A DNA stretch of 64,000 nt from contig JAUCBJ010001616.1 in assembly GCA_032718475.1 (NCBI GenBank), positions 62,001-126,000 of the forward strand, read 5' to 3'. Position 1 is the stretch's first letter, and the number at the start of each line of letters is the position of its first letter. Shown here in pieces: positions 2,658-59,775 of this stretch. The notes under the pieces are model-generated. The model was not told the DNA's origin, did no database searches, and saw nothing but the letters and a program-made list of their open reading frames with translations. A program made the position numbers and the translations under genes. The DNA comes from Nemertoderma westbladi. Lineage: Eukaryota; Animalia; Xenacoelomorpha.

Positions 2658-2979
2658 ATGTCTAAACCATTATCCTATCAAACATATGTGATGAAAACCG
2701 AAGGGAGTAAATATACAGAGAGAAACAAACCACGAAGGATATGCAAAAAATGGAAGAAAATCCTTCCAATATGCGCGACGATTTTAAAAAAACTATTTGT
2801 TGTTTTATGTATTTCGACCTACATCATCTTTGCCGGTTGTATTATTCATATAATTGAGCGGAAATATACGACTCCTGCACTGGAAATTATTAACCGTTCC
2901 ACGGACGAGATAAAACACACTCTAGAGAAGTTCACTGAAGAAAGACACTGTAAATTAATCAATGTCACCTTATTAGAAG
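2658..2979 (+). CDS. K2P potassium channel paralog A, exon 1 (N-terminus, TM1, cap helix)
   Basis: ATG at 2658; TM1 LFVVLCISTYIIFAGCIIHIIE; cap Cys (RHCKL); donor AAG|gtaggt at 2980, phase 1. Homologous to 35913-36216. Confidence 0.85.
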
Positions 2980-3084
2980 GTAGGTTAAACCAACGCAACC
3001 GTTTATAATTTACTCATCTCTCCTATCCTATGATAATACATTCTGTGGTGAAGTTCAACAGAGAGCTCATCCTTTTACATAGGG

Positions 3085-6065: not shown

Positions 6066-6821
6066 TAGTAACATTTTCACAATTTTCAAAATTCACATGT
6101 GGGCAGGCAATGACGACATGTGTAGTTTGACGTTTGTGTAGAGCTGTAGAAGCAAGACGGTTTAGACTGTCATCGTCGTCATGAACCGTGCTATTATTGT
6201 ATACTGATTGTGCTATTGATGATGATTGTGGATGCGGCGATGAGTAGTACCGAAACGCAAAACACACCGGTCGGGATTCCCTCGCCAACTCGGGGATCCC
6301 GTCACAGTCTAAACCCTGCTTAAAACAGTCTAAACCGCGACTTCAAGTCTAAACCTCTTAGTCAAGACCTACTTGAAGAAAACAAACTGTGACGAAAACA
6401 TGCCAACATGGGTACGATGAGCAAACAACCGCCCCAAGGTCCAGAGGGAGAAGGAAGCCCGCCGCGCACCCTGAGTGATACTGTAGAGACCAAATGATTT
6501 GGGAGGCAGTGACAAGGCGGTACTGGCCCGCCACACTGGATTCACCGATGAGAGACGATTCGGTGGTAGAGGAGGAAGGTGGATGGGTATGAGGGGACGA
6601 GAGACACGAGTCGGCACGAGACCAGAGCGGCGAACGAAGTACCGGAGTCGCTGGCCAACCAGTGGCCGAAGGCGGCGAGTGGCCAACCGGAACGGCAATG
6701 GTGGGGCCGACGGTATCACGCACGATACCAACCGGAAACTCGGAGCAATAGGCCTACTGCTTGTACAATGCATGCCAATTTCAACACCGCCAGGCACTGG
6801 GTGATTGCAGAGTGAGATTAA

Positions 6822-9335
6822 GGGCAGCACACCACTAAAATATATAAAAAAAATGAAAATTGAGTTTTTGATTGTTTTTTGGTGATTCACATATGGTCTT
6901 CGCTGTGGTAAAATTTTGAGTCCATATCAATACAGGAAGATTGTAAAAATTGCCTAGCTTTTGTGTATGTCCGATGGATTTTTGAGACTTTGAGTTACTT
7001 TTTAGCGAACAATACATCTGCCAAATACAGTATCTATAGATGCTGTTATTATGAGTTTCAAATCATCATTTTCTTCAATTTATGTAGTGGAGGGAATTTC
7101 AAACTTCTACTTCTGCAGTTATTTTTAGTAAAATTTTCAGTCTGATGTGTGGCATTGTTACTGTCTTGTTTCAATCGCTTGGCTACTTGACATCTTTCTT
7201 TGAAGACTCTGAAGATCTTATACAACATTATATTATATGTATGTGTCTGTCATCAATCAATGTTATATTCTGCTTACAAACAGGGCCTAAAGCCCTGAAA
7301 CACTTTTTGAGGGTTTGAGGTACTCTCCTACAGTCTGACAGTAGGCCTATCTGAAAAACACATACATCTTCATACATTTGTACCTTGTAGCAGAAGTTCT
7401 GATTTTGTAAATTATAGGCCTATATTAGTATAATATGGGTGTAGGAGTAGTTACCCAAAGATACCCATAACTGCCATAAACAAAACAGAAAATATTTACA
7501 AGTAGGCCTATAGGCTTTTAGATAACTATAATATATGACTACTATCTGACTATTTTCTGTGATATAATTTATTGATTGTTTTTTACTACATGGTACCTAC
7601 AGAGCTTGGTCCTTACCTGCTTGAAGTTACCCTGATGTTCAAGCTTTATAGAGAAACGGCGTTTCAGAGGAAACCGTTACAAGCCAGCAGTCGGTATCAG
7701 TAGTAGTGCTCAGTGCAGCAGTTCTGCCACTGAAAGCAATGCAGAAGTTGTCCCTATTGAAACAACTGGTACTATTTAACGACAAGCAGCTTCTAGTAGA
7801 AAGATAGCTACTGTTCCTGGAACTCTGGGATTTCCTGACTACAGTTCATCTAGGGATGGGTTTGAACTTATGGACATAGAATTATTGAATATTGCTCTTT
7901 CTGAAATTGTTTGCTATCAACATTGCCATGGTTCAAATATCATAATTGAAAAACAAATACAGTGTGGACTGGCTTCAAACTTCCAATTGAAATGCCATTC
8001 TTGTTTCAATTACGTACCATTTGACTCATCACCTCCAGCAAAAGTATCCACAAACAAGAAGGGCCAGGCACACTATGAGAACAATCTTCGTTTTGCATAT
8101 GGAATGAGGTCTATTGGAATTGGTGAAGAAGGAGCTAAAACATTTGCTGCAATAATGGGTATACAATCTCCCATTCAGCATTTTGATAGAACCTATGATG
8201 TAATTCTGCCAGCAGTCAAAGCAGTAGCTAAAGAAACTATGAAGGATGCTTGTTTGGAAGCTGTTTCAGAAAATGCCAATGATAATGCCACTGATATTGC
8301 TGTATGTGTTGATGGTAGTTGGCAACGTCGAGGACATAAGTCTCTCAATGGAGTTGTAACAATGACATCAATGGATACTGGTAAGGTCATAGAGATGTGC
8401 AATGTGTCTCTAAATTCTGCCATGGTTGCATCAAGATTCAGTCTCAGCCTCAAAGTGTGAAAGATGCATACAAGGAGATCTGCATCAAAAACTATGAAGG
8501 TACAAGCGGTGGAATGGAGGTTGTAGGTGCCAAGATGATGTTCAATCGCTCTGTTGATATTTATGGTGTTAGATATACAAAATATCTTGGTGATGGAGAT
8601 AGTAGTTCGTTTTCTACGGTAGCCAATAGTCAACCATATGGAAGTGATTGCCCAATATCCAAATTAGAATGCATAGGGCATGTACATAAAAGGATGGGAT
8701 GTAGACTGCGGCATCTAAAGACCTCTCTCAAGGGTAAGAAATTATCTGATAGTAAAACAATAGGAGGTAGAAACCGGCATACAGACAATACCATAAACTC
8801 TCTCCAACTGTACTATGGGATGGCAATTAGACAAAATACCCATGATCTTCAAGCAATGCATCGTGCAGTCCAAGCTATCCGTTTCCATAAGATGTCCACA
8901 AATGAGAATCCCCAACATGGATTATGTCCCAAAGAGGATAACACCTGGTGTGGATACAACAAATCCCTCATTACTGGAGAAGGTTATAATCATAAACATT
9001 CACTTCCAATAGCAATTATGGATGAGATTCGACCAATTTTCAGAGATCTATCAAACTTGAATCTTTAGAGTAAGTGCTTACATGGGCAAACTCAAAATTG
9101 TAATGAGAGTGTCAATAACTCAATCTGGGTTCTTTGCCCCAAGCGGGTATTTGTTGGATATAAAACTCTTGAGCTTGGGACATATGATGCTATATCATGC
9201 TTTAACTCTGGAAATATATCAAGATTCAAAGTTCTAGAGAAACTCGGAATAGATGCAGGACAATATTCTGTGAATGGATTGCAACAACTTGATGATCTCC
9301 ATATCAAGCGTGCCAATCGAGATTGTCGAGAAAGT
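6822..9335 (+). mobile_element. DNA transposon with frameshifted DDE transposase (Mutator-like domain; TTAA|GG end suggests Kolobok type)
   Basis: ORFs 7870-8460 and 8397-9068 carry VDGSWQRRGHKSLNG, YLGDGDSS and KLECIGHVHKRMG motifs, followed by C-LHGQTQNCNES. TTAA at 6818-6821 precedes GGGCAGCAC. The 3' end is truncated. Confidence 0.8.
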
Positions 9336-32218: not shown

Positions 32219-32895
32219 GTTATGGAGAGAATGTACCTGGTTCTGTGTTGGGGCGACAATTTACTATAGTCGTTGCTATATTTGGAATCCCTTTGACGAT
32301 TTATACATTAAACTCGTTCTCTGATATCCACAGATACATGGGGCGAGTCATAAACCTTGTTGTCAACCGAGTAATACCTTCAAGCGTATCACCACGAATA
32401 ATTGCTTCTACATCCGCTCTAGCACATATTGTCTTAAAATTTCTTACTATATTTGTGTTACCGGCGTTTCTATTCACGCGTATGGGTTATGGTTGGACAT
32501 ATGAAATTGCTTATTATACCACATTCATAACCTTCAGTACAATAGGTTTTGGAGACTATATACCACTCGAAGGTGGACTCCAACTCGAGGAGCATCTAGC
32601 ATCGGATTGGCGGCACTATGCAGTGTTATTTTTATTAATGGTTCTGATTCTGGCTGCATTATCCTATTTTTCTTCTCTGGTCAATGCAGTGGCGAGTGGT
32701 AGATGGCGACAGCAAATGGGGCTGCAGTTCCCAAATCATGAGCCAGAGGAAAGCAATGAGGCCAATACTGAGGATGAGCCATGTGAAAGTGTTAGTGGAT
32801 CGATGAATCGTAATATTCAGATTGCTGCAATGGAATTTACTGCTCACCAACAACAGAGTACTCAATCAGTATACATAAACAGTGTACACAATTAG
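32219..32895 (+). CDS. K2P paralog A, exon 3 (GYG, TM2, TM3, P2 STIGFGD, TM4); full protein 373 aa
   Basis: Acceptor ttttatag at 32218; G|GT TAT GGA completes TTIGYG; FGIPL; YYTTFITFSTIGFGDYIP. 322+123+677 nt = 374 codons, in frame. Confidence 0.92.
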
Positions 32896-35912: not shown

Positions 35913-36216
35913 ATGGTGGACAACTTGAAATTGATAAAGATGGAACGACAACACACTGAAGCTGAAAGTAAATACGTTATTGGCAGTACAAGCAGGATCA
36001 GGTCCATATGTGAAGTATTGCTAAAAAAGGCATTAATTGTATTATGTGTTGCTGCCTATATTACTCTTTGTGGCTGTGTTATGCATTTAGTTGAACAAAA
36101 ATATACAAAACCTGCATTGGAAGTTATACGAAATTCTAAGCTTGATGTAGCAAATATTGTCGAACGACTTGCTGTCGCTAAAAAGTGCGAATTAAAAAAC
36201 TATTCTAAGATACATG
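35913..36216 (+). CDS. K2P paralog B, exon 1
   Basis: TM1 ALIVLCVAAYITLCGCVMHLVE, cap Cys (KKCEL), donor G|gtgagt at 36217, phase 1. The start could alternatively be the Met of MERQH. Confidence 0.88.
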
Positions 36217-37289
36217 GTGAGTAAACTTATAGAAAAATAATAAGCAAATTAAATTAAACAAACTTGACCATAAGATATCAATACTGTCACTACTAATCAC
36301 CGGACATATGGACAAGTAACAGGGATGCGTTTGTAGTAGATACAGCATGTACATTGTACAATGTACAACTGCTATAGATCGTTCTAAAGCCCCGGGCATC
36401 ATTAGGTTAGGTACTTCATTGACTATAATAGGAAGGTTCACAGCGTTTTTAGTGAAAATAATTTAACGATATCATATATCATACGATATCAGTTACTGAT
36501 ATACAACTACACAAAATACTGATATCAATACATCCAGCAGTGAAATCTCGCCTACTACTTGTAGAATCAGCAACCTTTCTAATACAATCAGCTGTTGATA
36601 TTGATTGGCGTCACTGATTGGTCAACCATGTTATAACAAACAGCAACAGCCATGTGGTAGTTTTAATCGAGAAAAAGTGAGTAATTCGGTCGACAGCATC
36701 AACAGCTATTATCGATGTAATATAAGATCTTAACGGGTCGCGGAATGATTCCAGAATAGTGCATCTATTAAATTAAATCACTGTTTCGATAATGTTACTG
36801 GGTCAGGGTCACCATTATTTCATTATCTTCATTGTCAAAATAAAAGAATACGGATGTGTGTTGTGGTTTAGTGTGTCACATATTATCTCAAACTTCAATT
36901 CTTACTTTTCAACGAACCCTTTGACAATAGTTTAGTAAAGTAACAGAGATGATAAATAATAATTGTCACCAGTAAGCATTACAGATCTATATGGTCTTAT
37001 GGTCAGGTCAGGTATTCAGGTAATGCAGCATGCCGATCCTAGTAGTAGTACAGATCTTTTCACTGATTCTAAAAGAACTTTGGTACCCAAGTGTTTTGTT
37101 ATACATCAGATAGGTCCTTCCTATATATGGTATACAGACTGTTGTATATATTGGTGTAAACCCTACGCCGACCGATAATCAAAACCGACAAACATTATTG
37201 ACGCTAATTAATGTTAATAATCAATTGAGGGAAAGGTACATCTTACAGTGGATTGTTATTCTAACCAAAACAATAAACAATATCTCATT

Positions 37290-38014: not shown

Positions 38015-38625
38015 GATATGGTGACGTGATACCTGGTTCTGTGTTGGGCAGACAATTGACAATTGTTATCGCTTTGTTTGGTATTCCACTGATGATTTAT
38101 ACACTGAATGCATTCCGAGGAATCCACACATTCATTGGTTATTGTCTAGACGAAGTTATGTTTCATTTAAAGCCAAAATGGCTAACAGTACAAATGAGCA
38201 CTGCGATCTCGGCAGTCGTCCATATAGTAACTTCCTATTTGCTTATATTTATATTGCCAGCGTTGTTATTCAAACGCATGGGATATAATTGGACTTACGA
38301 AATCGCTTACTATACAACATTTATAACGTACAGTACTATAGGTTTGGGTGATTACATCCCAGGGGATGAGGAAATACAGGAAACACCCGAGCAAAAAGCA
38401 GGATGGCATTCATTGGGAATTCTCTGGTCACTTATGGTGATGATGGTGGCGGCATTGTCATACTTTTCGTCATTAGTCAACGCGTTAGCTGGTGGTACCT
38501 TGAGGCAGCATCTGGGGCTGCATAAATGTAAGAAAGACCAGAGCCAAACCACCAGCTATTTCAATAACATAAGTGTTGGTCAGGATTCTGTCGACGACGC
38601 TTATCTCTTGTCGACGATATCGTGA
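38015..38625 (+). CDS. K2P paralog B, exon 3 (GYGD, P2 STIGLGD); full protein 345 aa
   Basis: cttcag acceptor; GYGDVIPGSVLGRQ..FGIPL..YYTTFITYSTIGLGDYIP. 304+123+611 nt = 346 codons. Confidence 0.93.
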
Positions 38626-38779: not shown

Positions 38780-41700
38780 TTAATTACGGTTGGACCCTAC
38801 AATCTATAATTAAATTCACAGTGACCGACAATCGACCAAAGAAAAAAAGAACAAAAATGAAACCAATAGAACTTCATTATACACTATCATTACAAAGTGA
38901 AAAATGCAAAAAAAAAAACAAAAAAAAAAAAATTTACGAGGGTGGATATTTATGGCCCAGTATTGCGAATATATTAATTATACAATATTACACAGATAGA
39001 AGTACTTCCCAACGGTCCCGTAAAGTCGAGGACGTACAAATATTAAAACAAACTGAAAGTAAATCGTTACTAGAAGACGCTACTCGCCTTGCGAACGAGC
39101 CTGCCGCAACCCTACATATTGCTACAAAAGCATTAACTCGATTATTTACAAAAATTGTATCCGCGTCATCACAGCGACAATACTTAAAAAGTAACCTGAA
39201 CGCAGTATTGTAGGCTACACGGACCTTACGTAGTTCCTCAACTCTAAATATACTCCACAATGAAGTACAATAAAGACTGTAACAATAAGTTTTAAATAGC
39301 GCTCGTTTCACTGGCAATGAGCAACCGCCAAAGAAGCGTGCTAACTGGTTACCATGGCGATAAAGAGAACGCTTAGCAACCATCATATCAGACTCATCTG
39401 ACAGTGAACTACTAAGTATGTGTCCTGGATAAGTAAGTTCTTTTACGCAAGGTATTATTTTACCACATAAATAAACATCCCCAGATCTACCTAGTTTACA
39501 TGGGTGATAATATAAACACTTAGATTTACCGGGGTTATACAGAATATCCGGATCGATACCATACTTTTCACAGATTCGTAATAGCACTCTCAGACCCTGT
39601 ATACTGGGGGCCAAGACACAAAGGTCGTCGGCGTAAAGTAAGTTATTTATCCTACTGGACCCAACTTTACATCCTACAGAAGCACGATTTAATAATTTAC
39701 TCAAATCATTAAGATAAATGTTGAACAAAAGAGGAGACAACAATGAGCCTTGTCGTACAGAGTTACCGACACGAAAAACAGCTGAGGTAGCATTACCCCA
39801 GGTTACAGTTAGCACTTGGTTAGTGTACCAGTAGAATAAAATACGTACTATACACACGGGTACTTTGAGATTTAATAATTTCTGAAAAAGTTTGTAATAA
39901 TTAACCCGATCGAACGCTTTACAGGAGTCTAAGAATGCCACATAAACAGGCGAGTCACGAGAGATATATAAATGAACTGTGTCTTTAAGAACATATATAC
40001 AAGTCTCGGTACCCAGTCCTGGACTAAAACCAAATTGATTGTCGGTCAATTTCGTTTTTTCCTTAATTCTACCAAATATACAAGATTCAAACACTTTAGC
40101 ACAAATATTAGATATATTTATAGGCCTATAATTATCCTTATCAGACAAAGAGGCATTCTTATTCTTTACAATAGGAAACAAAGCACAAACCATAAATGAA
40201 CTAGGAAGATATCCATGCGTTAATAATGCATTAAACAATAACGATAAAATAACACAGAGGTTATCACCGGCATACATAAAAAGTTCCGGACAGACGCCAT
40301 CGGGCCCGGCGGCCTTCCCGCCATTCAGCCCCTCGATAGCCGATTTTACTTCGCGAGGGGAAACATGAGTTTTCCCCTCACCATCCCAATTTTCAAAGGT
40401 TTTCTTTAGAGACGAGATATCTTTCTCGTTGACGTCAACTGAGTTAAAAATACGTTCATAATTACCACGAAACAGATCAGCAATATCCGCGTCAGAATGA
40501 GCGTCACCAACTGAAGACGCTCTAGGGATTCTAGAATTAGTTATTTTCTGGGTTTGACGCCAAAAGTCCTTATTAGAAGCGAGAAATGAATTGGCCAATT
40601 TATCATTCCGAATCTCCTTCTCTCGGGCTCTACAGTTACGTAGAGCCAATTTATATTGAGCTGACGTTTTCCTTTTTACTTCCCAAAGCAACCCCGTTTT
40701 AGGGTTTCCATTTTCCCGCCAAATACGGAAGGCCTCACGAGAGGCCTCTCGTTTTTCTTTCACAAATTCATTCCAACCGGGGACCACTGGTTTGTTAGAG
40801 CCCCCCGTTTTAGAATCCCGAAAACATTCCGAACCAGAATTTTTCAAAATACGCATAACATTATCATGTAGCAACTGAAATTGTAACAAATGTGCCTCGT
40901 TGCAACAATGTACATCAGAACAAATAATTACTTCGTGGGGCAATATAATATCAGAAAATAAAACATTAGTACGATCGGCATATGCACGTTTCATGTTATT
41001 ATCTACTTTGTCCCAGAAGGGGGCGCTATAATTCTTACGTGAGTCATTATTCAAATTATTAGTTCCATTACAAAAATTATCACTGCGAAAAAATAAATTT
41101 GAATGAAATAGGCATATGATCAAACTCTGACACCTCATACAGTATCTTCATATCCAAAATTAACTTATGAAATTCGCAACTCGATATCACGTGGTCGAGC
41201 CAAGACACGGTACCGTGTACATGGCTCGTGTATGTGAACGAGTTACTAGGTAACAAATGAGAGTCAGAAATATACAGCTTTTCACTGTCGCAAAATTTCA
41301 TAAGTTCCTTGCCAAAGCTTCGGCGCGGGTCAGCGTTAAAGTCTCCCAATATACAGTTACTAGTAAAAGTATTAAAATCAATGATCGAACCACATTTACC
41401 CAATAATTCAGAGAAATGGTCCATATTATCGTTCGATTGGCACGGCATATAAACATTGAGAAAAAGGCTCTGTGGGCCATCCGGGGCGCCAACCCGCAGA
41501 CCCATAATACGCTCCTCATTGAACTCCTGAAAATTAATATAAGGAGCCAATGGCTTGCGCCATAAAGCCGCCAAACCACCATGTGGCCTACCCACCCTCG
41601 GGCCGAGGGACAGGTCGACTGAGGAGACTCCCCTACCAAAAAAACTATCGTGGATAGAATTCAGTTTATGCAGATCTTGCTTTACCATCCAAGTTCCCTG

Positions 41701-41880
41701 TAAAAAAACAATATCATGACTGTCTAGCAACTTAGTAACGTGGGGCAGGTTATTATCAATGCCATTACAGTTAAATGTACATATACGGAGCGAACTAGAT
41801 ATGGGTGCCATCACGCTTTCTGGGACCATAGAACGAGCCTGGGCCCCAATACTCGTACGGCTTTATGTGTAACACGCCAG
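38780..41880 (-). mobile_element. Near-intact APE-RT non-LTR retrotransposon (RTEX-like, clade tentative)
   Basis: Endonuclease ORF 41829-41080 (TFNCNG, GRPHGG, GDFNAD, WLDH) and RT ORF 41138-38988 (NQFGF, VRQGSLLSP, YADD) separated by one frameshift. Confidence 0.93.
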
Positions 41881-43729
41881 TGTAAATATTATTAATATCC
41901 TATTGAATCACAGCTTATTGTGAAATTAATTAAATTATTCTGGAACATCACCAATTTGCTACTTACTTTTCCCTACTGTTCCTTTTGTTTGGCTTGTGTT
42001 ATGTAAATTTAGGTAGAATTTCCATGAATAAACATACATAAGCAAAATAAAATTTTGTAGACTTTTTTTTGTCATTAATAAGGTAATATAGAATCCAAAA
42101 TATGTGGTTCGGATTGATTGCGAAATACTTATGGGTTTTTTGCTAGATTGACTCGACTATAAGCCTTTACATTACAATTGAGCTTACCCTGAGTTGATGA
42201 CAGTATTGTAACGATGACAATTAGGCCCTATAGATACATACGATATATAAATAATGTACTGCTTGACATTACACTAACTGGCTGAATAGAGATAGAACTA
42301 TAATAATATAATAATAATAGTAGTAATGGTTTACCCTATTTCTGCGACAGTTTAGTCCAACTTCACACCTTGGGTGTTAAGTAGGTCATTAATTAATTAA
42401 CCAATTAATTAATTGGTCGATTAAACAATTAATTAATTGTTTAATCAATCGATTTGTATCAAATAATGTTGCCAAAGGCAATTTAATTTGACACAAATCA
42501 ATCAGATAGGGACGCGCGATGAATAAATTGTACTACAGCAAACGAAATATCGAGGCCCAAAACATAAATTACCCTCACACGAAAATAAAGTGGCCCCAGT
42601 TTGGCCCCGAGTCATCCCTCAATAATCTATGGCTGGTTGGGATCTTATTAGCCGTAGCATAACTAACCCAAACATCAATGCGTGAATGGGGCCTGCTACA
42701 GAGTTTAAATTATTCAAACCCACAGCTTCGTTATTATATCAATTCATCCAAGAAATTAGAATAAACATCTGGTATGGCAATAGTTTGCATTCTTTCATAT
42801 TGTGCAGTTTACGCATGCATTAGCTCAACAACAAAGCCCTACCCAAACGCCATGTGTCAAATTAATTCCCAACCATATCTATACCACAGTGGATACTGCA
42901 GTTTTATTGTTTGAAAATATGCCTAACCCCTCACGCGCCGTTGGACTCTTATTAGCCGTAGCATGACTAACCCAAACATCAATGCGTGAATGGGGCCTGC
43001 GTGAATGGGGCCTGCCACAGAGTTTAAATTATTCAAACCTTCAGCTTCGTTATTACATCAATTCGCCTAAGAAAATTATAATAAACATCTGCTCTTGCAA
43101 TAGATTGCATTCTTTCGCATTGTACTTTATGAAGCAGTCCACTCGCGTCTGACCGCACATAATTAAATAAGGCCCTCTTTTAATACATAAGTTATATACA
43201 GTTTATCTTAAATTTATTGAATTTGTTTTTATTTACAACCCTAATTGTTCTACCGTATTATAATTTATGTTTTATTATAACAAGCTATACCCTGTTAATC
43301 TTTATTAATTTTATTTGTACTGAAGTTTTCGAGGGCGCTGTTTCCAATGGTCCTACTCTCAAAGCGATCTAACCTACTGTATAATTAATTACTTAAGTCT
43401 GCGAGGTATGCGTAAGTAACAAATCTCGTTTACCAGTTTTCCTTAAAAACTATGAATCTATATTGCTTAAGAGTTCTGAGGGGTGAGCCATGAGGCAAGG
43501 TGTTTGATACTTTTTAGATATATTATTACTTAATTTTGACCCCCCAGACGGTATCTATTACAATATAGGCTATATCTTTTTGCGGAGTCACAGAGTAGTC
43601 TGAAGATCCGAGTCTGCTGCTAGAGGGTGAAATGTCTCAAAGTGAAAATCATACAGTAACTATGAATTGGTTGCTAGGCAATAATACTACATTTTGTATA
43701 GTTAGGCCTATTGCTGATCGAACGAAAAC

Positions 43730-43805
43730 TGCCCTGGTCCATGTGAGGATCGAACCCACGACCTACTGGAGATGTGAATTCAAAGCAACCACTACACCAA
43801 GGTGG
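43730..43805 (-). ncRNA. tRNA(Val-CAC)-like Pol III head, left arm
   Basis: Minus strand: A box TGGTGTAGTGG, loop TTCACAT, B box GGTTCGATCC in a T-arm GTGGG/CTCAC, then TTTT. The acceptor stem is poor, so this is not a functional tRNA. Confidence 0.65.
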
Positions 43806-43876
43806 AACAGTAACGTTCGAATTTGTTCGTTAACGTTCGAATTTGTAAGACTCTGATTTAAGACCTGAGGCACTCC

Positions 43877-44460
43877 CCACAACCACAGCCACAGCCACAA
43901 CCACAGCCACAACCACAGCCACAGCCACAGCCACAGCCACAACCACAGCCACAGCCACAGCCACAACCACAGCCACAGCCACAGCCACAGCCACAGCCAC
44001 AGCCACAACCACAGCCACAACCACAGCCACAGCCACAACCACACCCACAGCCACAACCACAGCCACAGCCACAGCCACAACCACAGCCACAGCCACAACC
44101 ACAGCCACAACCACAGCCACAGCCACAACCACACCCACAACCACAGCCACAGCCACAGCCACAACCACAGCCACAGCCACAGCCACAACCACAGCCACAG
44201 CCACAGCCACAGCCACAGCCACAACCACAGCCACAGCCACAACCACAGCCACAGCCACAACCACAACCACAGCCACAGCCACAGCCACAACCACAGCCAC
44301 AGCCACAGCCACAACCACAGCCACAGCCACAGCCACAACCACAGCCACAGCCACAGCCACAACCACAACCACAGCCACACCCACAGCCACAGCCACAGCC
44401 ACAACCACAGCCACAGCCACAGCCACAACCACAGCCACAACCACAGCCACAACCACAGCC
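43877..44460. repeat. (CCACAG/CCACAA)n hexamer array, left arm
   Basis: Direct inspection; reverse complement of 46065-46875. Confidence 0.98.
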
Positions 44461-44564
44461 TCACCTTCACCCACTTTATTGTTAAATACGCCTGAGAAAA
44501 ATTCAAGAAACATCTGGTTTACAATAGATTATTCTTTTTTCACAACTCCATTCTAGCCTCCCTC

Positions 44565-44599
44565 TATAAAAGCCCCCATTCACCGCATTCTCATTCATT
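44565..44599 (+). promoter_or_regulatory. TATA box and TCATT initiator of the central cassette
   Basis: TATAAAA at 44565; TCATT at 44591 and 44595 (A 28-32 nt downstream); ATG at 44712. Confidence 0.6.
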
Positions 44600-44711
44600 C
44601 TCTAATTTTTATTTTTAAAAGTTTTATTTATTTTCATAAAAGTTTTATTTATTTAAAATTTTGTAAAATCATTCAGCGAAAATTCATAATATCAATTGAC
44701 ATTGCTATATA

Positions 44712-45470
44712 ATGCCTAGCTATGAAAGATGTTTGGTTTGTAATAAAGAAATGAGACGAGACAGTATATCCCGTCATATGAGTATACATAGAAAGGAAGG
44801 TGTAATGGAACCATTACCAAAGAAATTAAAAAATAATGATGATATTTTTAGTGAAGAAGAAAACAAAAAGAGAGTTGAGAGTGATTTTCTAGAGATTAAA
44901 CAAATGATGAAACATAAATTCGAGAAAATCATGAATATTTTGAAGAATATACAGAAACAGCCACATAGTGAAAAGGACGATGAGAGTGAGGAAGAGAATA
45001 AATCAGAGGAAAGTGAGAATGATGAAACGGAGAGTGAGATAGAGAAAGAAGAAAATGAGAGTGGTGGTGAAGAAAATGAGAGCGAGAAAGAAGTCGAGGA
45101 ACATGAAAGTGGTGAGGATAATGACTCAGATAATGAGGAGATATTAAGACATGTATTAGGAAATAAAAATAAATTGCAGAAAATAATTAGACAATTGAAT
45201 GAAATGCAGAAACATTCGCATAAGGAGAGTGATAATGATGGAAATGAGAGTGATGAGGATGAATCGGAGGAGAGTAGCGATGACAGTGAGGAAGAATCAA
45301 AGGAGGGTAGCGATGACAGTGAGGAAGCATCAGAGGAGAATGACAATGAAAATGGACAGAAAATCAGAGTAGGGAATGGAAAAGTTATATCTCCGGCAAC
45401 TGTTGTATATCGACCTAGGATTATGAACAGTAACAGTCGTACAGTTAGTGCGAGACAGTGCAGAAGATAA
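44712..45470 (+). CDS. Intronless C2H2-like zinc finger plus acidic low-complexity protein (element cargo)
   Basis: CLVC-x12-HMSIH (C-x2-C-x12-H-x3-H), basic PKKLK, coiled-coil and D/E/S-rich tracts; upstream TATA/Inr; AATAAA at ~45836. Confidence 0.7.
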   Translation: MPSYERCLVCNKEMRRDSISRHMSIHRKEGVMEPLPKKLKNNDDIFSEEENKKRVESDFLEIKQMMKHKFEKIMNILKNIQKQPHSEKDDESEEENKSEESENDETESEIEKEENESGGEENESEKEVEEHESGEDNDSDNEEILRHVLGNKNKLQKIIRQLNEMQKHSHKESDNDGNESDEDESEESSDDSEEESKEGSDDSEEASEENDNENGQKIRVGNGKVISPATVVYRPRIMNSNSRTVSARQCRR

Positions 45471-45742
45471 TTAGACAATTGAATGAAATGCAGAAACATT
45501 CGCATAAGGAGAGTGATAATGATGGAAATGAGAGTGATGGGGATGAATCGGAGGAGAGTAGCGATGACAGTGAGGAAGAATCAGAGGAGAGTAGCGATGA
45601 CAGTGAGGAAGCATCAGAGGAGAATGACAATGAAAATGGACAGAAAATCAGAGTAGGGAATGGAAAAGTTATATCTCCAGCAACTGTTGTATATCGACCT
45701 AGGATTATGAACAGTAACAGTCGTACAGTTAATGCGAGACAT
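45175..45742 (+). repeat. 284-bp tandem duplication of the 3' end of the ZnF-acidic ORF
   Basis: TGCAGAA(A/G)ATAATTAGAC at 45175 and 45459; the two copies are near-identical. Confidence 0.95.
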
Positions 45743-46064
45743 TAATTATAACCGAAATATTGTATATGTTTGAAATATTTATTATATTTAGTCGTATTAA
45801 TTATGTAATTTCATAATAATATGCTTAATTAAACAAATAAAGTCAACTTGATCCTGAGTTCTGAGTCGTTTTGTGTGGTGGTGGGTAATTGTATTTGTAA
45901 TTTTAATTTGTGTAATGGTCTAATATATATTATATATTATAAACCACTATAAATGATCAGTCCTGTCTGATCCTATTTTAAATGCATAATGAATGAGTAA
46001 CCAAAACATCAAATTAGTTAAACATTTTGACAACAGATAAACAAATATTCTCCTGTGGGGAGAA

Positions 46065-46875
46065 GTGGTGGCTGTGGTTGTGGCTGTGGTTGTGGCTGTG
46101 GTTGTGGCTGTGGCTGTGGTTGTGGCTGTGGCTGTGGTTGTGGCTGTGGCTGTGGTTGTGGCTGTGGCTGTGGTTGTGGCTGTGGCTGTGGCTGTGGCTG
46201 TGGTTGTGGCTGTGGCTGTGGTTGTGGCTGTGGCTGTGGCTGTGGCTGTGGCTGTGGCTATGGCTGTGGCTGTGGCTGTAGCTGTGGCTGTGGTTGTGGC
46301 TGTGGCTGTGGTTGTGGCTGTGGCTGTGGCTGTGGTTGTGGCTGTGGTTGTGGCTGTGGCTGTGGTTGTGGCTGTGGCTGTGGTTGTGGCTGTGGCTGTG
46401 GCTGTGGTTGTGGCTGTGGCTGTGGTTGTGGCTGTGGCTGTGGCTGTGGCTGTGGCTGTGGTTGTGGCTGTGGCTGTGGCTGTGGTTGTGGCTGTGGCTG
46501 TGGCTGTGGCTGTGGCTGTGGTTGTGGCTGTGGCTGTGGTTGTGGCTGTGGCTGTGGCTGTGGCTGTGGCTGTGGTTGTGGCTGTGGCTGTGGCTGTGGT
46601 TGTGGCTGTGGCTGTGGCTGTGGCTGTGGCTGTGGCTGTGGTAATGGCTGTGGCTGTGGCTGTAGCTGTGGCTGTGGTTGTGGCTGTGGCTGTAGCTGTG
46701 GCTGTGGTTGTGGCTGTGGCTGTGGTTGTGGCTGTGGTTGTGGCTGTGGTTGTGGCTGTGGCTGTGGCTGTGGTTGTGGCTGTGGCTGTGGCTGTGGCTG
46801 TGGTTGTGGCTGTGGCTGTGGTTGTGGTTGTGGCTGTGGTTGTGGCTGTGGCTGTGGCTGTGGCTGTGGTTGTGG
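46065..46875. repeat. (GTGGCT/GTGGTT)n hexamer array, right arm
   Basis: Direct inspection. Confidence 0.98.
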
Positions 46876-46944
46876 GGAGTGCATCAGGTCTTAAATCAGA
46901 GTCTTACAAATTCGAACGTTAACGAACAAATTCAAACGTTACTG

Positions 46945-47016
46945 TTTCACCTTGGTGTAGTGGTTGCTTTGAATTCACATCTCCCGCATGTCATGGGTTC
47001 AACCCTCACATGGACT
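46945..47016 (+). ncRNA. tRNA-like Pol III head, right arm
   Basis: A box TGGTGTAGTGG and B box GGTTCAACCC; mirror copy of 43730-43805. Confidence 0.6.
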
Positions 47017-47474
47017 TGACACATGGCGTTTGGGCGATGGCTTTGTTGTTTAGCTAATATGCGCGTGGACTGCTTCGCAATACAATGCGAAAGAATGCAA
47101 TCTATTGCAAGAGCAGATGTTTATTATAATTTTCTTAGGCGAATTGATGTAATAACGAAGCTATAGGTTTGAATAATTTAAACTCTATCGCAGGTCCCAT
47201 TCACGCGTTGACATACAGTATAGGATTCGATGTTTGGATTAGTCATGCTATGGTTAATAAGAGCCCAACGACCGCAGATTATTGAGGGATGACTCAGGGC
47301 CAAACTGGCCCACTTTATTTTCGAGTGAGGGTAATTTATGTTTTGGGCCCCGATTGTGTCTTTATATTTCATTCTAGAGTATAACTCAACGTGGGATTCC
47401 GTGGGATGCTTAATCCTTCACGCATGCCATACCAAAAACTATGGTTCTGTTTGAAATGTTAAGGTGGACCTTTC

Positions 47475-47507
47475 TATATAAATAAAACCATGTAAAGTTA
47501 GATCATT
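47475..47507 (+). promoter_or_regulatory. TATA box and TCATT initiator of the GTSF1-like cassette
   Basis: TATATAAA at 47475; TCATT at 47503 (A 28-30 nt downstream); ATG at 47612. Confidence 0.6.
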
Positions 47508-47611
47508 ATCTCTAAAAAATATTAAGCGAGGTTTTTCAAAGTTTTTTTTTTTTTTTTTTTAAAAAGTAAATCTAAATAAATTTTGTCTTTTGTCTTTTGT
47601 CTTTTGTTACT

Positions 47612-47923
47612 ATGGAATATTTTATATGTCCATATGATGCCACACATCGAATTCATTCAGAAAAATATGTCAACCATTTAAGAAAATGTCGTAAGAACTT
47701 TCCCAGCGAAAAAATGGTTCAGTGTCCTTTCGAAGTCGCACACAGCTTCAGAGAAGCTGAAAAGGACCACCATCTGCTGTATTGCGAATATAGGAACAGG
47801 AACTCAATTTTTCAGAAAATAAAAGAGGAGAAAAAAGAAGAGAAAAAAGAAGAGAAAAAAGAAAAAAAGGTAGAGAAGAAAGGAGAATGTTCGATGGCGT
47901 GGGGAGAAGAGGTGTGGGATTGA
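47612..47923 (+). CDS. GTSF1: GTSF1/Asterix-like protein: two U11-48K-type CHHC zinc fingers, KE linker and EEVWD tail (103 aa, intronless)
   Basis: CPYDATH-x9-HLRKC and CPFEVAH-x9-HLLYC both fit C-x5-H-x9-H-x3-C. CPYD..H.I....HL.KCRKN.P closely matches the GTSF1 first finger as recalled. Acidic Trp C-terminus WGEEVWD. Confidence 0.88.
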   Translation: MEYFICPYDATHRIHSEKYVNHLRKCRKNFPSEKMVQCPFEVAHSFREAEKDHHLLYCEYRNRNSIFQKIKEEKKEEKKEEKKEKKVEKKGECSMAWGEEVWD

Positions 47924-48863
47924 AGTTGGTATGCGCGAGAAAAACTACAGTAACTAGTATAGAGAAGATTGGGGTTAATTTGAGACATGGTGTTTGGGTA
48001 TTGCCTTTGTTGATGAGCTAATACAACGACCGCAGATTATTGATGGATGACTCAGGGCCAAACTGGTCCACTTTATTTTCGAGTGAGGGTAATTTATGTT
48101 TTGGGCCCCGTTCTCATCTTTATATTCATTCTACCTTTACCTACTGTACGGCAAAAATAATACAAATGTATTGTATATTATATTGTATGGTTCCTATTGT
48201 GTTGTATATTTCGTTTGTTATAGTACAATTTATTCATCTCGCGTCCCTATCTGATTGATTTGTGTCAAATTAAATTGCCTTTGGCAACATTATTTGATAC
48301 AAATCGATTGATTAAACAATTAATTAATTGTTTAATCGACCAATTAATTAATTGTTTAATTAATTAATGAACTACTTAACACCCAAGGTGCGAAGTAGGT
48401 CCAACTGTCGCCAAGAGTGGCAAACCATTACTACTGGTACATGTTTAATTTTTATGGTAGATAGTGTTTTCAATGGTAGTTAGTGTATTCATAAAAATGG
48501 TACAGTAGTTATTTAATAGTATTATATTATTAGTACTATTATAGTATTTAAAAATACCAACATATCGTATTATTATTATGAATATCCATATTAAATTTGG
48601 TTTATCTTCATTTATTTATCAGTGAAAAGAGTCTAGTATTGAAGAAAATAAAATAACGTGATTTCTGCAGCAATTTATTAAATAGATAATGAAAAAAATC
48701 TACAGTAGTTGCACAGATTCGGTCGTCCTTACGACTCATTTCCAGTATAGAACCCACAGAACTATACTTCTTACAGGCAAAGAGATAACTGGTGCCGGGA
48801 CTCATTTAAGGACCATTTAATTAACAAAGCAAATATGCGCCCTGGTTTGGTTAGTCCCTTTAA

Positions 48864-50418
48864 CCCTATTAGTACCGGGCTATAAAATGTTGTACAAATA
48901 CCGGGAGGGGGTCATATTGACCCCCCCCTCTAAAATCTACAAATATTTACGAAAACGTCTGATTTCTTGTTTGTACGTAGGTATCACTTGTCTGGATCCG
49001 ACCGAAAAAAAAAATTTCGAAAAAAATGTACTGGGGTGGTTATATTGCAGCACCAAAATTACAAGTAGTGCACAATTTTCACCAAATTTGAAAGTTACAT
49101 TTTCGGCTAATTATTTTTCAATACAGGTTTTCTGGGGTGCAAAATACATTGGAAAATATTAAAAAATGATATGATTACTATAAATGGCTGTTTAGTCCTC
49201 TCTGCGTAGGAAAAAAATGAAAAAAACAAGTAACCAGCACTTTTCAGTTAGAACACAAAATTTTTAATTCACTTATACGATGCTATAAATTCACATTTTC
49301 AGGTTTTCGAGGGCGCTGATTCTAATGGAATACATTTCTAATATGCCAGATCATTGCTACTTGTATTTTTCGGCGTTTTTTGGCAAATTTTGGTGCTAGC
49401 ACCAAATTTCGTACCCATCACCAAAAAGTACAAGTTTGCGATGTCCAGTGCTGTTTTTATTGATTCCATCGGATTCAGGACCCTCATAAACCCGTATAAC
49501 GCAAGAAACAAGGTGATACTATCTACTTATCAATTTGCATATTTTCCAAAATTTGGTGCTGGCACAACAATTTTCACCTACCGGCGAAAAATACCATTTT
49601 GAGAACACTTATGAAATTTTTACTGATTCCATTGAATTCAGAACCATCACAAACCCATATAACGCAAGAAACAAGGTGACACAATCAATTGATATATTTG
49701 ATGGTTTTCAAAATTTGGTGCTAGCACCACATTTTGCACCCACATCCGAAAAATACAAGTTTGAGATGTCTAGTTCGATAATTATATTTTCCATTGAATT
49801 CAGAACAGCCATAAACCTCTAAAACCCAAGAAATAAGTTGTCACAAGCAATTTTATCTATTGAATGGATTTTCAAAATTTCGTGCTTGCACCAAAATTTG
49901 CACACAGCACCGAAAAATACAAGTTTGATACGCTTGGTGCAACTCGTATATATTTCATCGAATCTAGAAACCCAAAAAACCCCAATTGCGTAAAAAACAA
50001 GTTTCAAACGATCAATTTACAAAATTGACTTATTTCAAAATTTGGTGCTGGCACCAAAATTTGGCACCCACCGAAAAAAACAAGTTTGAAATTTCTAAAT
50101 CAATTTATATGAATTCCATCAAATTTCTAACACCAAAAAACCGGTGTAAATAATAAATAGAGATGTTACAATTCATATTTAATGAAATGTAATTTTCAAA
50201 AAACGTCTCAAAAAAAGTGCCAAAAGTAGGGTTAAAAAATGGTGCTATAACTCGAAAAGTACCCAATATTTTTGAAAACGGTTTTCACTACTAGGAAGAC
50301 AATAGATTTTTAGGAAAGGTCATAAAATTTCAGATTCCTAACTGCGTTTGTTTCAGATTTATAATAAAAAAACCACGGGAGGGGTCATATTGACCCCCCC
50401 CCCCCGGGTTTAATAGGG
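48864..50418. mobile_element. Non-autonomous piggyBac (MITE) with TTAA TSD
   Basis: TTAA|CCCTATTA...TAATAGGG|TTAA; subterminal palindrome GGGGTCATATTGACCCC near both ends; internal degenerate repeats. Confidence 0.9.
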
Positions 50419-53400
50419 TTAAAGCATTTATGCCAAAACGAAAACTATCCTGGCCCGCCTGCAGGGGTAGAACCCCACGACCTCTGGAGCGATATTAATT
50501 CAAGGAAATGAATTTAAATGCTACGCAAGGCTTGGAAAAATTTAATATGCGTGTTTGTATTAGGACACGACCCTTAAAAATACAAAGTAAGCTGTCACTT
50601 TGTTCGTTCAATATGCTCAAATTAACAATAAACACAATATTGCAATGTTCTAGAGTTAATATACGGAAATAAAAACCTTCAGCGAATAAAACTGTAATAA
50701 TCACTTCTGCCTTATCCTTCAGCAAATTAACCTAATATACAATACAGGTTAATTTGCTTCTGGAACGGCATCAGTGATTATTCAGTCTTATTCGCTTCAG
50801 GTTATTATTTCCGTATATTAACTCTAGAACATTGCAATATTGTATGTATATTAGATATTAGATATTTGATATTTTTGTTTATTTTTGATATTGTTCATTT
50901 TCATTATGTTTGATATTTTTTTTTATCTGTTCTTTATTATATTTTTCATAAATGGCGAATTTTCAAGGATCTAGAAGCCTTAACATAGTATCAACTGCAA
51001 CTCTGTCAGAGGTGCCTCTTTGGCAACTATAAAAGGTTTATGTAGTTTTGCCGATATTATTTGTTTACATGAGATTATGCTCCCCAAACAGGAGCTTGGT
51101 TTTTTACAAACAATTTCAGATAATTTTTATGCAAAGGGATTTAGTCCTGTTGACTTACAGGAACAATTACTAATTGGAAGGCCATATGGCGGACTAGCAT
51201 TTTTGTGGCGTAAAGTATTGGGAAAAATTATTGTAATTTTAAAGGATATTGGTGATGATAGGATTAGAATTGCAGTAATTAATACACATGAAACTGAACC
51301 TTACTTGTTTAACGTGTATCTTCCATACGAATGTCCAGAAAATGTAGACGATTAATTGGATTACTTGGGTACCCTCACTTCCCTCATAGATGAGATGAAC
51401 AGTCCTTTAATTGCTATTGTAGGAGATTTCAATGGTGACCCCTCAAGACGGAACTTTGGTAATTTTATCAAATTTTTTGTAGAAGATGCCGGGCTCACAT
51501 GGAGAGATTTTGAACGTCAATCAACAGTTACACATACATTTGTCAGTTCAGCCCATCATACTACATATTGGCTAGACCACATCGTATGTAGCGGTTCTAT
51601 GGACTCTAAAGTGTTTCACGTATCAACATTCCCAGAATTACTAACTTCCGATCACATACCGATATCTATGATACTATCTTTGAATTATGAGTTACGCTTT
51701 TGCGACGCGGGAATTCCACCAGGTACAACTCTAGAAAGTTCAGGATCAGTTAGTTTTTGTTTCTCAAAATCCCCCAGTAGAGACTGGTCTCGCGCAACGT
51801 CTTGTCATTTAAACTCATATAAAAGTGTTTTAATTAAGGAACTGAAAAGTATAGATATTCCGTACAGCGTTCTTTCCAACACATCCATTGACATTAGTGA
51901 TGATAATCGTACTCAGGTAATAGATGACTATTATGAGAATATTGTTGATGCCATTTTAAGAGCGTCTAAGGAATCAATTCCGGCTCGTCCTTGTGGAGAG
52001 AAGGATAATAAACATGACCACTCGGTGCCAGGTTGGTCTGAGTTGGTTAAAGATAAATACGATCAGGCCAGGGAGGTCTTCTTATGGTGGCGCGCAGTCG
52101 GTAGTCCTAGAGATGGTCCTATCAGTGTGGAAATGCGTAGAACACGTGCGTTTTTCAAACTAGCTTTTAATTAATGTCGTAGGACTGCAGAAAGAATTAA
52201 ATCTGACAAATTAGCAGAAAGTCTCTTACATAGAAAACCCAATGATTTTTGGATAGAGGTCTCCAAGATGAGTAACCAGCATACAGTCATACCTGACAGT
52301 GTAGATACAGCAAATGGTGAAGAGGCTATATGCGATATATGTGGCGCACTGAGTATAGTCAGCTGCTTAATCAGGATCCCAAGAAAAGCAAGGAACACAA
52401 ATGGAAGATCTAGTACATAATTTGATCCCCGACAGTGAGGAAAATCCGAAGGATAGTGCAGTGAGCGCGTCAGAAATTTTCGAGGCCATTAAGGAATTAA
52501 GTGGAGAGAAAGCAATTGGGACAGATGGTGTAAGTGCAGAACATTTACTCTATGCACCAGCCGAGTTATCTGTGCATATTTCTTTTTTGCTAACAACTTC
52601 ATTGTCTAACAGTTACTTTCCATCAAAGTTTATTGTAAGTTATATTGTACCTGTTTTAAAAAACAAGAATGAAAAAATAACTGATAACTGTAATGATAGA
52701 CCAGTTGCAATATCAAATATTTTGTCTAAAGTTCTATAACGAGTGATTCTTACGCGTTATAAATCACATTTAATAGTCGCTGATAATCAATTTGGTTATA
52801 AAGCTAATCATAGTACTGATTTCTGCAATTTTGTACTGAAGGATATAGTATCAGAATACATCCGTATACATATTACATATGCTTAATTGATGCCTCAAAG
52901 GCTTTTGATAGGGTGATCCATTCATTAATATTATTTTTTAAGTTATTAGACAAGGGCGTGCAGAAATCTGTACTTATTCTACTCACGTCTACTGGTATAG
53001 TCGTCAAGAAATATGTGTTAAATGGGGAAAGATATTTTCTGGTTTATTTTTTGTAACCAATGGAGTTCGTCAGGGTAGTTTAATATCTCTTGTGTTTTAT
53101 AATGTATATATGGATGATCAAACTATTTTACTAAATAATAGTGGTTTAGGGTGCAAAATTAATAATTGTAGAGCTAATAATATTTCTTACGCAGATGACA
53201 TTTCCCTTATGGCAACAAGTACTCTAGCGTTACAGAAATTAATTGATATTGGAAGTAAATACGCTAACGATCATTGTCTTACATTTAATTTAAAGAGAAC
53301 GAAATGTTTATATTTTAAGGCACGTTCTAGAACAGATTTTCCACAGTGCGGTGTATTTAAATAGGGAAGTTGTCAAGGTTGTTACTAGTGCTACTTATCT

Positions 53401-54539: not shown

Positions 54540-54857
54540 TCAGATACTCGAAGATACTCCACGCTTATTAACTTCTCTTGATGATGATGAAGTTTGTCTG
54601 TTGTTTATATCAGTTCCGAATACTGATGGAGCCTCCAGCGGTCTTTCATACCTTTTTATCTTGATCATCTCAGCGTTTTCTGGCCAATGTCGCGCACATA
54701 CTCCAATATTTGGCGTTACTTTCTCTATTCTATTTGGTATATTCTCCAACCAATAATGTTGGTCTATTAAGTTTTTTGGGAACTGGTAAACTGTTACCTT
54801 CTCTTCTTGCGAGGCATAATTTCCTTCACAGCCTGCCACAGAGCATTTGCGTGGCAT
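54540..54857 (-). CDS. THAP zinc-finger domain of the P transposase (105-aa ORF)
   Basis: MPRKCSVAGC..FPK..W..VCARHW..APSVF is the C2CH THAP signature. Confidence 0.85.
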   Translation of the reverse strand: MPRKCSVAGCEGNYASQEEKVTVYQFPKNLIDQHYWLENIPNRIEKVTPNIGVCARHWPENAEMIKIKRYERPLEAPSVFGTDINNRQTSSSSREVNKRGVSSSI

Positions 54858-58424: not shown

Positions 58425-59775
58425 TATCTGTCGGTCTCTGTTCGCCCCCTTCTTGGTTCGGTCCGGGTCTCTGTCCACCACCTGGGTTTGGTTCGGGCCT
58501 CTGTCTGCCTCATAAGCCAACTGGGGGTAATTGACCGACCCCTTGCCTTGGTTCGGTCCGGGTCTCTGTCCACCCACTGGGTTCGGTCCAGGACTCTGTC
58601 CGCACCCTGGTTTGGTCCAGGACTCTGTCCGCTCCCTGGATTCAGTCCGGGGCACTGTCCGCCCCATTGGTTCGGTCCGGGTGTCTGTCCACCCCCTGGG
58701 TTCGGTCCAGGACTCTGTTCGCACCATGGTTCGGTCCAGGACTCTGCACGCCCCCTGGGTACGGTCCGGGACACTGTCCGCCCCCTTGGTTTGGTCCGCG
58801 TCTCTGTCCACCACCTGGGTTTGGTTCGGGCCTCTGTCTGCCCCATAAGCCAACTGGGGGTAATTGTCCGACCCCTTGCCTTTATTCGGTCCGGGTCTCT
58901 GTCCAACCCCTGGGTTCGGTCCAGGACTCTGTCCGCACCCTGGTTTGGTCCAGGACTCCGTCCGCTCCCTAGGTTCAGTCCGGGACACTGTCCGCCCCAT
59001 TGGTTCGGTCCGGGAATCTGTCCACCCCCTGGGTTCGGTCCAGGACTCTGTACGCACCCTGGTTCGGTCCAGGACTCTGTCCGCCCCCTGGGTACGGTCC
59101 GGGACACTGTCCGCCCCATTGGTTCGGTCCGGGTCTCTGTCCATCCCCTGGGTTCGGTACAGGACTCTGTCCGCCCCCTGGATACGGTCCGGGACACTGT
59201 CCGCCCCATTGGTTCGGTCCGGGTCTCTGTCCACCCCCTGGGTTCGGTCCAGGACTCTGTCCGCCCCCTTGGTACGGTCCGGGACACTGTCCGCCCCATT
59301 GGTTCGGTCCGGGTCTCTGTCCACCCCCTGTGTTCGGTCCAGGACTCTGTCCGCACCCTGGTTCGGTCCAGCACTCTGTCCGCCCCCTGGGTACGGTCCG
59401 GGACACTGTCCGCCCCCTTGGTTTGGTTCGGGTCTCTGTCCACCACCTGGGTTTGGTTCGGGCCTCTGTCTGCCCCATAAGCCAACTGTGGGTAATTGTG
59501 CTCCCCCTTGCCTTGGTTCGGTCCGGGACTCTGTCCGCCCCCTTGGTTCGGTCCGGGACTCTGTCCACCCCCTGGGTTCGGTCCAGGAGTCTGTCCGCAC
59601 CCTGGTTCGGTCCAGGACTCTGTCCGCCCCCTGGGTACGGTCCGGGACACTGTCCGCCCCCTTGGTTCGGTCCGGGTCTCTGTCCACCCCCTGGGTTCGG
59701 TCCGGAACTCTGTCCACCCCCTTGGTTCAGTCCAGGTCTCGGTCAGCCCCCTGGGTTCGGTCCGGGACTTTATCA
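58425..59775. repeat. GC-rich ~30-bp minisatellite (GGTTCGGTCCGGGACTCTGTCCGCCCCCTG)n
   Basis: About 40 variant units; the spacer CCATAAGCCAACTG(G/T)GGGTAATTG recurs at ~58510, ~58844 and ~59475. Confidence 0.95.

Follow-up and report, generated by a model that had tools for sequence, protein, structure and literature searches.

Within a 64,000-nt stretch of Nemertoderma westbladi DNA (contig JAUCBJ010001616.1, positions 62,001 to 126,000; hereafter the window), positions 42319-48435 hold a 6.1-kb fold-back element that begins with AGTAGT at its left end, closes with ACTACT at its right end and carries an open reading frame (ORF) for a small GTSF1/Asterix homologue. We put at about one in two the probability that this element is a non-autonomous, deleted Maverick/Polinton derivative that maintains a PIWI cofactor, probably for counter-defence. 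The window is animal DNA of ~37% GC, with long interspersed nuclear elements (LINEs), a Mutator transposase, a THAP ORF and pieces of two-pore channels.

The GTSF1 homologue and its repeat family

The ORF at 47612-47923 is, as judged from its sequence and predicted fold, an intact, intronless homologue of GTSF1/Asterix. Pfam zf-U11-48K matches it twice (E 2.8e-9), and it matches mouse GTSF1 (E 1.2e-12) and the GTSF1 chain 9nhb of the SIWI complex (E 8.6e-10). The predicted fold has a predicted local distance difference test score (pLDDT) of ~90 over the fingers, with 6x46 and 9nhc as the first structure matches. Both tandem CHHC fingers are complete (C6 H12 H22 C26 and C38 H44 H54 C58), so that all eight zinc ligands are kept; the ligands and W97 are conserved across 18 aligned sequences, W97 being invariant. 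W97 and W102 align with the mouse tryptophan region, and the protein ends directly after these tryptophans. RNA binding by mouse GTSF1 needs four basic residues, R26, R29, K36 and K39 (PMC9385479). Three of these four positions are basic here (H15, K18, K25, K28), the position of mouse R26 being His; that position is variable, Arg occupying it in only 35 of 150 hits. Homologues of similar shortness are frequent, 25 of the 150 hits measuring <=114 aa. The small protein is predicted to engage PIWI and RNA. At E<=0.001 the ORF matches 527 representatives, none of them close, the best hits over the full fingers being ~47% identical. A narrow search of viral contigs, the broader one not having been completed, gave no relative of it. 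Word-based protein searches returned nothing for this ORF or for the second cargo ORF in the centre of the element, and neither is in the cluster collection.

Genome-level evidence came from one comparison of public contigs against positions 46880-49350 (runs X1, X2, X3 and X5). X1 and X3 are one sample; the evidence on the GTSF1 family comes from three runs and at most two samples. At one position of the GTSF1 ORF, other letters were carried by up to seven contigs of X1-X3. Of two overlapping pieces in X2, one differed at 2 of 143 positions and the other at 22 of 160; a piece in X3 differed at 26 of 162, and all three were free of gaps. Joints lead into subterminal-unit sequence from the ORF end in X3 and from the cassette end in X1, and the X3 form keeps the last codons and the stop. 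Because several diverged, gap-free GTSF1 versions are joined to subterminal units, the GTSF1 copy belongs to a repeat family. Eight ORF variants were found among the 40 rows listed (there are 112 more); three are silent, one of them at the ligand His12. In X1-X3 the letters of the window are often outnumbered by others, so the runs show the family and not the 42319-48435 locus itself, and no contig in this comparison spans the whole stretch.

Summed contig depth in X1-X3, which is not copy number, was 0.1-4 thousand in the ORF bins, 4-51 thousand in the inner subterminal unit and 17-132 thousand in the TIR (terminal inverted repeat) core. These values hint at more copies with a TIR than with GTSF1. 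A joint from 47376 to 48141 fits arms free of the cassette; a variant outer unit could also give it. X5 had zero cover over the GTSF1 cassette, which by itself proves nothing. Since none of the 24 contig ends listed, of 1063, lies at 48435, the end point of the family is not independently fixed.

Anatomy of the element

Self-comparison showed that the arms are mosaics of a 232-bp TIR, subterminal units of ~310-360 bp, a tRNA-like head with a hexamer array, and unpaired inserts on each side. The features are as follows.

42319-42550, +, left TIR; begins AGTAGT, AT palindromes at 42400-42417 and 42419-42446
42549-42906, +, subterminal unit 1, full length
42934-43147, +, subterminal unit 2, incomplete; identity 81% with unit 1 and 87% with the right inner unit
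43150-43712, no strand, left-only segment without a partner elsewhere in the window or a Pfam match
43713-43802, -, left tRNA-like head; A box, B-box-like GTTCGATCC, terminal stem, TTTT directly after
43803-43876, -, left leader between head and array; mirrored on the right
43877-44460, -, left hexamer array; 97 units of GCTGTG/GTTGTG on the minus strand
44463-44537, +, degenerate subterminal-unit fragment (76%) on the inner side of the left array
44565-44599, +, TATA box and TCATT initiator-like site; no ATG before the central ORF start
44712-45470, +, central ORF, 252 aa; N-terminal C-x2-C-x11-H-x3-H finger, long helix, acidic tail (71 D+E)
45175-45741, +, 284-bp tandem duplication (98%) covering the 3' end of the central ORF, whose stop lies 12 bases into the second copy
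45924-45962, +, third site, TATA..TCAGT, facing the right array; only short ORFs downstream
46068-46875, +, right hexamer array; 134 units
46876-46948, +, right leader; mirror of 43803-43876
46949-47015, +, right tRNA-like head; 3' end cut by a subterminal unit
47016-47354, -, right inner subterminal unit; identity with unit 1 80%
47266-47376 and 48024-48133, +, direct repeat of ~110 bp (93%) around the GTSF1 cassette
47475-47507, +, TATA box and TCATT initiator-like site; no ATG before the GTSF1 ORF start
47612-47923, +, GTSF1/Asterix homologue, 103 aa; two CHHC fingers, tail W97 and W102
47940-48110, -, right outer subterminal unit; internal deletion
48111-48205, no strand, right-only segment, 95 bp
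48206-48435, -, right TIR; ends ACTACT, AT palindrome at 48310-48337

An earlier note on this DNA had described AGTAGT termini and a mirrored order of AT palindromes, subterminal repeats, tRNA-like heads and hexamer arrays, and all of these are present: arm homology stops exactly at AGTAGT (42319) and ACTACT (48435), and units, heads and arrays are mirrored left and right. The 28-bp palindromes at 42419-42446 and 48310-48337 are the longest perfect ones of the window, and the 18-bp one at 42400-42417, likewise of AT type, is also perfect. The inverted arms of ~2 kb named in that note proved to be sets of mirrored modules rather than continuous repeats, the true TIR being 232 bp long. Mirror partners exist for 1540 of 2156 bases on the left and 1695 of 2376 on the right, of which the hexamer arrays make up 584 and 808. 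About 590 bp is left-only sequence without a partner, and the GTSF1 cassette, within the right arm, is right-only. The TIRs are identical at 217 of 233 positions (93%), namely 14/14 at the tip, 35/46 next to it and 168/173 inside, and the subterminal units are 80-93% identical. The centre (44461-46067) has the expected 1.6 kb and is non-palindromic; what had been called a 1.6-kb central gene is an ORF of only 759 bp with the 284-bp tandem duplication at its 3' end.

An assembly fold-back, which the earlier note had raised as a possible undoing of the element, would account for the mirror layout and for the lack of a contig across the stretch. It is effectively excluded by unequal arms around a unique centre: the 93% TIR and the 80-93% units, arrays of 97 against 134 hexamers, unpaired inserts and the non-palindromic centre leave it scarcely credible.

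The tRNA-like heads have A boxes at 46953(+) and 43799(-), B boxes that fit the short consensus only, and a common leader of ~70 bp with the array upstream. They are thus mirrored as the note had said and have an A box, while their tRNA likeness was not picked up by ARAGORN, nor by Rfam at E<=1. The left head additionally has a terminal stem and TTTT, a stop that makes a 1.4-kb RNA polymerase III (Pol III) transcript unlikely. An Rfam match to Plasmid_RNAIII (E 0.18, under the cut-off) was dropped, and VA/PQ repeat frames in the arrays were rejected as genes because the hexamers contain no stops.

Both cargo ORFs are uninterrupted and, as the earlier note had seen, share a TATA..TCATT arrangement, which lies 110-120 nt upstream with no intervening ATG; TATA start to TCATT start measures 26/30 nt and 26/28 nt. 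Three TATA-initiator sites lie in the element, where 1000 local shuffles lead one to expect 0.57 (P=0.02); of random 200-bp windows, 2.4% contain one. The third, at 45924-45962, has no long ORF and could yield a transcript able to base-pair with the mirrored arm.

The N-terminal finger of the 252-aa central ORF models as beta-beta-alpha. Fold searches of the N-terminus gave no match at E<=0.001, its Atlas rows (0.85-0.87) are leads only, and the BUD22 and phrog_1576 matches were set aside as reflecting the acidic stretch. The finger pattern had seven matches on six viral contigs of 13-30 kb (27 ORFs scanned): three of these contigs encode Sputnik capsids, one an rve integrase and an A32 ATPase, one has a weak capsid match and one no hallmark in the three ORFs tested. 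At least 120 metagenome loci have the pattern. In locus L007, 13 of 17 residues are identical over the finger. A Polinton-type polymerase in locus L025 (367-4116) begins with the same 11-spacer finger. Together these matches point weakly to a Polinton-lineage origin.

Some further features of this pattern were seen in the metagenome set. The finger C-x2-C-x-K-x-M-R-x-D-x-[ILF]-x-R-H is in frame in 105 of the 120 metagenome loci listed (within L001-L127), and 18 of those 105 fingers stand at the end of GIY-YIG-like proteins; the finger of the window's ORF falls under the Pfam cut-offs. L025:367-4116 and L003:1993-5748 encode Polinton-type polymerases with an endonuclease VII-like insert, which Pfam does not name as polymerases.

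Three of the top 20 rows of the fold search with the central finger are Vesanto proteins, which brings in a different origin, from a bidna/Vesanto-like DNA virus with a segmented genome, one segment of which would have been endogenised and amplified. Such segments measure 3.3-5.8 kb and have common inverted terminal repeats (PMC8363768). We consider this very unlikely, as the Vesanto rows cover 22-30 columns at E 0.16-0.82, none attaining E 0.001, and the arms are decayed mosaics with microsatellites.

Ends, target site and mode of origin

The commonest end motif of vertebrate Mavericks is (AGT)2//(ACT)2, besides (AG)3//(CT)3 or (AC)3A, and their TIRs measure 46-1447 bp (PMC8097293). The three motifs together account for ~0.0007 of window positions. 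Like Mavericks/Polintons (PMC8097293), the element has the (AGT)2//(ACT)2 ends, a TIR (232 bp) within the published range, intronless ORFs (uninterrupted as known from DNA alone) and accessory genes near its ends. Unlike the intact vertebrate elements of 12.7-24.6 kb in the same source, it is only 6.1 kb long, its arms are mosaics, and it lacks core genes and a 6-bp target-site duplication (TSD). Its TIR palindrome was not found in viral or metagenome contig collections.

Several observations weigh against a Maverick derivative. The 6-bp TSD is absent, the longest exact flank match being 4 bp within <=12 bp of either end. In 24 read-through frames, the arrays left out, Pfam found no family of Maverick core genes (pPolB, integrase, ATPase, protease, capsids), nor any transposase, integrase, polymerase, Rep or capsid family. 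Identity between the TIRs drops to 76% over positions 15-60, although true ends ought to be the best preserved, and the left end continues into an AAT-rich tract, possibly a retroposon tail. A third, diverged tRNA-like head lies outside the element at 50429-50510 (E 0.0015), beside a piggyBac-type element. This head and the ~100-fold depth spread between modules, which is not copy number, indicate that modules also occur apart; five of the eight listed GTSF1 variants change a residue, all at non-ligand positions, and the diverged GTSF1 pieces could include the host parent gene. Whole-protein searches of the central ORF gave nothing; its finger match covers ~20 aa and was picked by pattern with no control pattern run, and the finger is not exclusive, since among 18 metagenome loci scanned (50 ORFs) 5 had virophage/Polinton-type genes, 1 a HET gene and 12 no such hallmark.

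The absence of a TSD and of a mobilisation enzyme agrees with what the earlier note had reported, and because of these two gaps the element cannot be filed as a Maverick, though it would work like a non-autonomous one. The Maverick-like counter-defence vehicle proposed in that note keeps the end motif, the TIR length, the lack of an enzyme, the cargo related to a cofactor of PIWI-interacting RNA (piRNA) silencing and the virophage/Polinton-like finger on its side; the missing 6-bp TSD counts against it.

Many of the same facts could arise if the arms were two one-ended repeats, Helitron-like or tRNA-headed retroposons with an ATT/ACT tail, that came to lie head to head either by chance or through a local inverted duplication; one would have captured GTSF1, and the centre would be unrelated trapped DNA. 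A tRNA-derived short interspersed element (SINE) has Pol III A and B boxes at its 5' end and, in each copy, a tail and TSD of its own; a non-autonomous Helitron has a 3' hairpin and CTRR, a 5' TC and no TIR. At the right end of the element CTGG is followed by T, with a 4-bp hairpin 12 nt earlier, which is weakly Helitron-3'-like; the left end reads CTAT without a hairpin, and the inner ends are not TC-defined. AGTAGT/ACTACT can also be read as a trinucleotide tail, given the AAT-rich tract beyond the left end; no TSD of either arm was seen by eye, and the tract is at the left end only. There is no common TSD, the arms hold different inserts below a diverged sub-tip, modules stand free, and some contigs of X1-X3 have other sequence in place of the array beside the leader. 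The earlier note had named independent arms as a refutation, and the third tRNA-like head goes some way in that direction. We nevertheless regard two joined repeats, the chief rival to a Maverick derivative, as unlikely. The boundary has the exact Maverick motif, the left end lacks the hairpin, and the TTTT stop after the left head makes it an improbable head of a 1.4-kb Pol III transcript. Moreover, both arms carry three letters that are the minority in X1-X3 contigs (5-21%, 17-40% and 18-30% of depth) and that sit in two separate modules, while three other tested sites differ between the arms; a young subfamily would produce the same sharing.

A cut-and-paste origin, in which an element of Foldback or Pack-MULE (Mutator-like element) type with unequal inverted repeats picked up GTSF1 and was moved by a host DDE transposase, is also hard to favour. 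Foldback/Galileo and Pack-MULE elements have long, modular, unequal inverted repeats around captured genes and no enzyme of their own, and Foldback/MULE insertions have an 8-11-bp TSD. The element resembles them in its modular, asymmetric arms with internal repeats, its captured gene and its lack of an enzyme, and the window contains a Mutator transposase remnant. It differs in its end motif, which fits Mavericks, the end motifs of MULE and hAT elements fitting less well, and in that no 8-11-bp TSD was found at its ends; the central finger is of a type that suggests Polinton-like viruses. MULEs have been described as capturing Maverick cargo (10.1101/2022.07.12.499685), which lends this origin some credit, and we judge it quite unlikely all the same.

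Several other features of the window lie around the element. Its right flank (48457-48788) is itself repeated in X1-X3, with no X5 cover. At 48859-50422 there is a piggyBac-type non-autonomous element with TTAA at both ends, short TIRs, hairpins near the ends and 163-bp tandem repeats inside; depth over its compared part was very high. LINE copies at 38988-41829 (-) and ~50930-52739 (+), related but distinct, encode an endonuclease and a reverse transcriptase and point away from the element. A Mutator-like transposase lies in two pieces at 7870-9068 and a THAP-domain ORF at 54540-54857. Positions 2658-3008, 32338-32895, 35913-36224 and 38092-38625 resemble pieces of a two-pore potassium channel gene cluster whose members have diverged; of the two pieces scanned, 32338-32895 matched Ion_trans_2 and 2658-3008 gave no match. 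The window also has a 17-bp array at 4377-6068 (100 copies), a 30-bp array at 58546-59769 (41 copies) and an inverted repeat at 50628-50694/50783-50849.

Cargo and PIWI silencing

If the element is a deleted Maverick derivative, it would have kept its TIRs and lost its mobilisation enzyme while carrying an intact, intronless GTSF1 homologue. An intact Maverick would supply integrase and protein-primed polymerase in trans, recognising the AGTAGT ends, and recombination between modules may have made the arms unequal and removed the TSD. The cargo genes would be expressed in the germline, where the GTSF1 homologue is predicted to bind host PIWI and so blunt piRNA silencing of the family.

The least certain part, clearly short of an even chance even granted the rest, is that the small GTSF1 would act as a rival of the host cofactor for PIWI and not as its helper. 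The element would have most reason to keep GTSF1 if the two competed; yet all the activity residues are present, which makes a working cofactor that adds to host silencing, or a neutral passenger, about as likely. Such a role overlaps with the Maverick-derivative reading, shares its element and is a real, if lesser, possibility. The zinc ligands, K18, K25, K28 and W97 are kept, features needed for mouse GTSF1 activity (PMC9385479), and animals keep several working GTSF paralogues (PMC9385479, PMC9539491). Some points speak against a decoy: nothing in the copy is visibly broken, and neither its His at the variable R26 position nor its shortness sets it apart. On the other side, a selfish element gains little from stronger silencing, and a dead passenger sits badly with a promoter-like site of its own and gap-free diverged versions. 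Compared with mouse GTSF1 (6x46), the SIWI-complex chains (9nhb/9nhc) and descriptions of GTSF1/Asterix (PMC9385479, PMC9539491), the protein has the same two CHHC fingers, basic ridge and aromatic tail residue, and differs in being 103 aa long and intronless, ending after the tryptophans, having a basic linker and His at R26, and occurring in several versions in a repeat family.

GTSF1 binds tRNA (PMC9539491), and the pairing of a GTSF1 cargo with tRNA-like heads in one element is suggestive. A bolder and doubtful extension is an anti-piRNA module, in which the mini GTSF1 would occupy host PIWI while tRNA-like Pol III genes, present in many copies, would titrate away the host GTSF1 that binds tRNA.

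Cargo of this kind has precedents. Nematode Mavericks carry wasp and krma (10.1101/2022.07.12.499685), and one insect polinton group is linked to the gene mael, some polintons being without polB (10.1101/2025.02.07.637071). The element resembles these in having host-type or accessory cargo between Maverick TIRs and differs in that they keep core genes, whereas here only ends and cargo are left. The source leaves the name mael unexpanded, and we take it to be the piRNA factor Maelstrom. GTSF does not occur in the main text of 10.1101/2025.02.07.637071, nor mael, piRNA or GTSF in that of PMC8502044. The VANC proteins encoded by Arabidopsis VANDAL elements are anti-silencing proteins (PMC5735166, PMC10398659); if the decoy role holds, the GTSF1 copy would be like them a transposon-borne protein acting on host silencing, although VANC belongs to plant Mutator-type elements, acts through DNA demethylation and is not a copy of a host piRNA cofactor. 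A transposon-borne GTSF1 was not found in open-licence full text; Repbase and supplements, which lie outside that scope, may list such a gene.

Anti-silencing proteins of plant transposons have been described, and we found none built from a piRNA cofactor for animals. If the anti-piRNA module is real, the family would encode a transposon-borne mimic of a piRNA cofactor in an animal. Taken along with the insect polintons linked to mael, the element would point to more than one acquisition of piRNA factors by Polinton-type elements. With its intact GTSF1, such a mobile family offers a small candidate, open to direct testing, either for PIWI counter-defence or for the amplification of a host defence gene by transposons.

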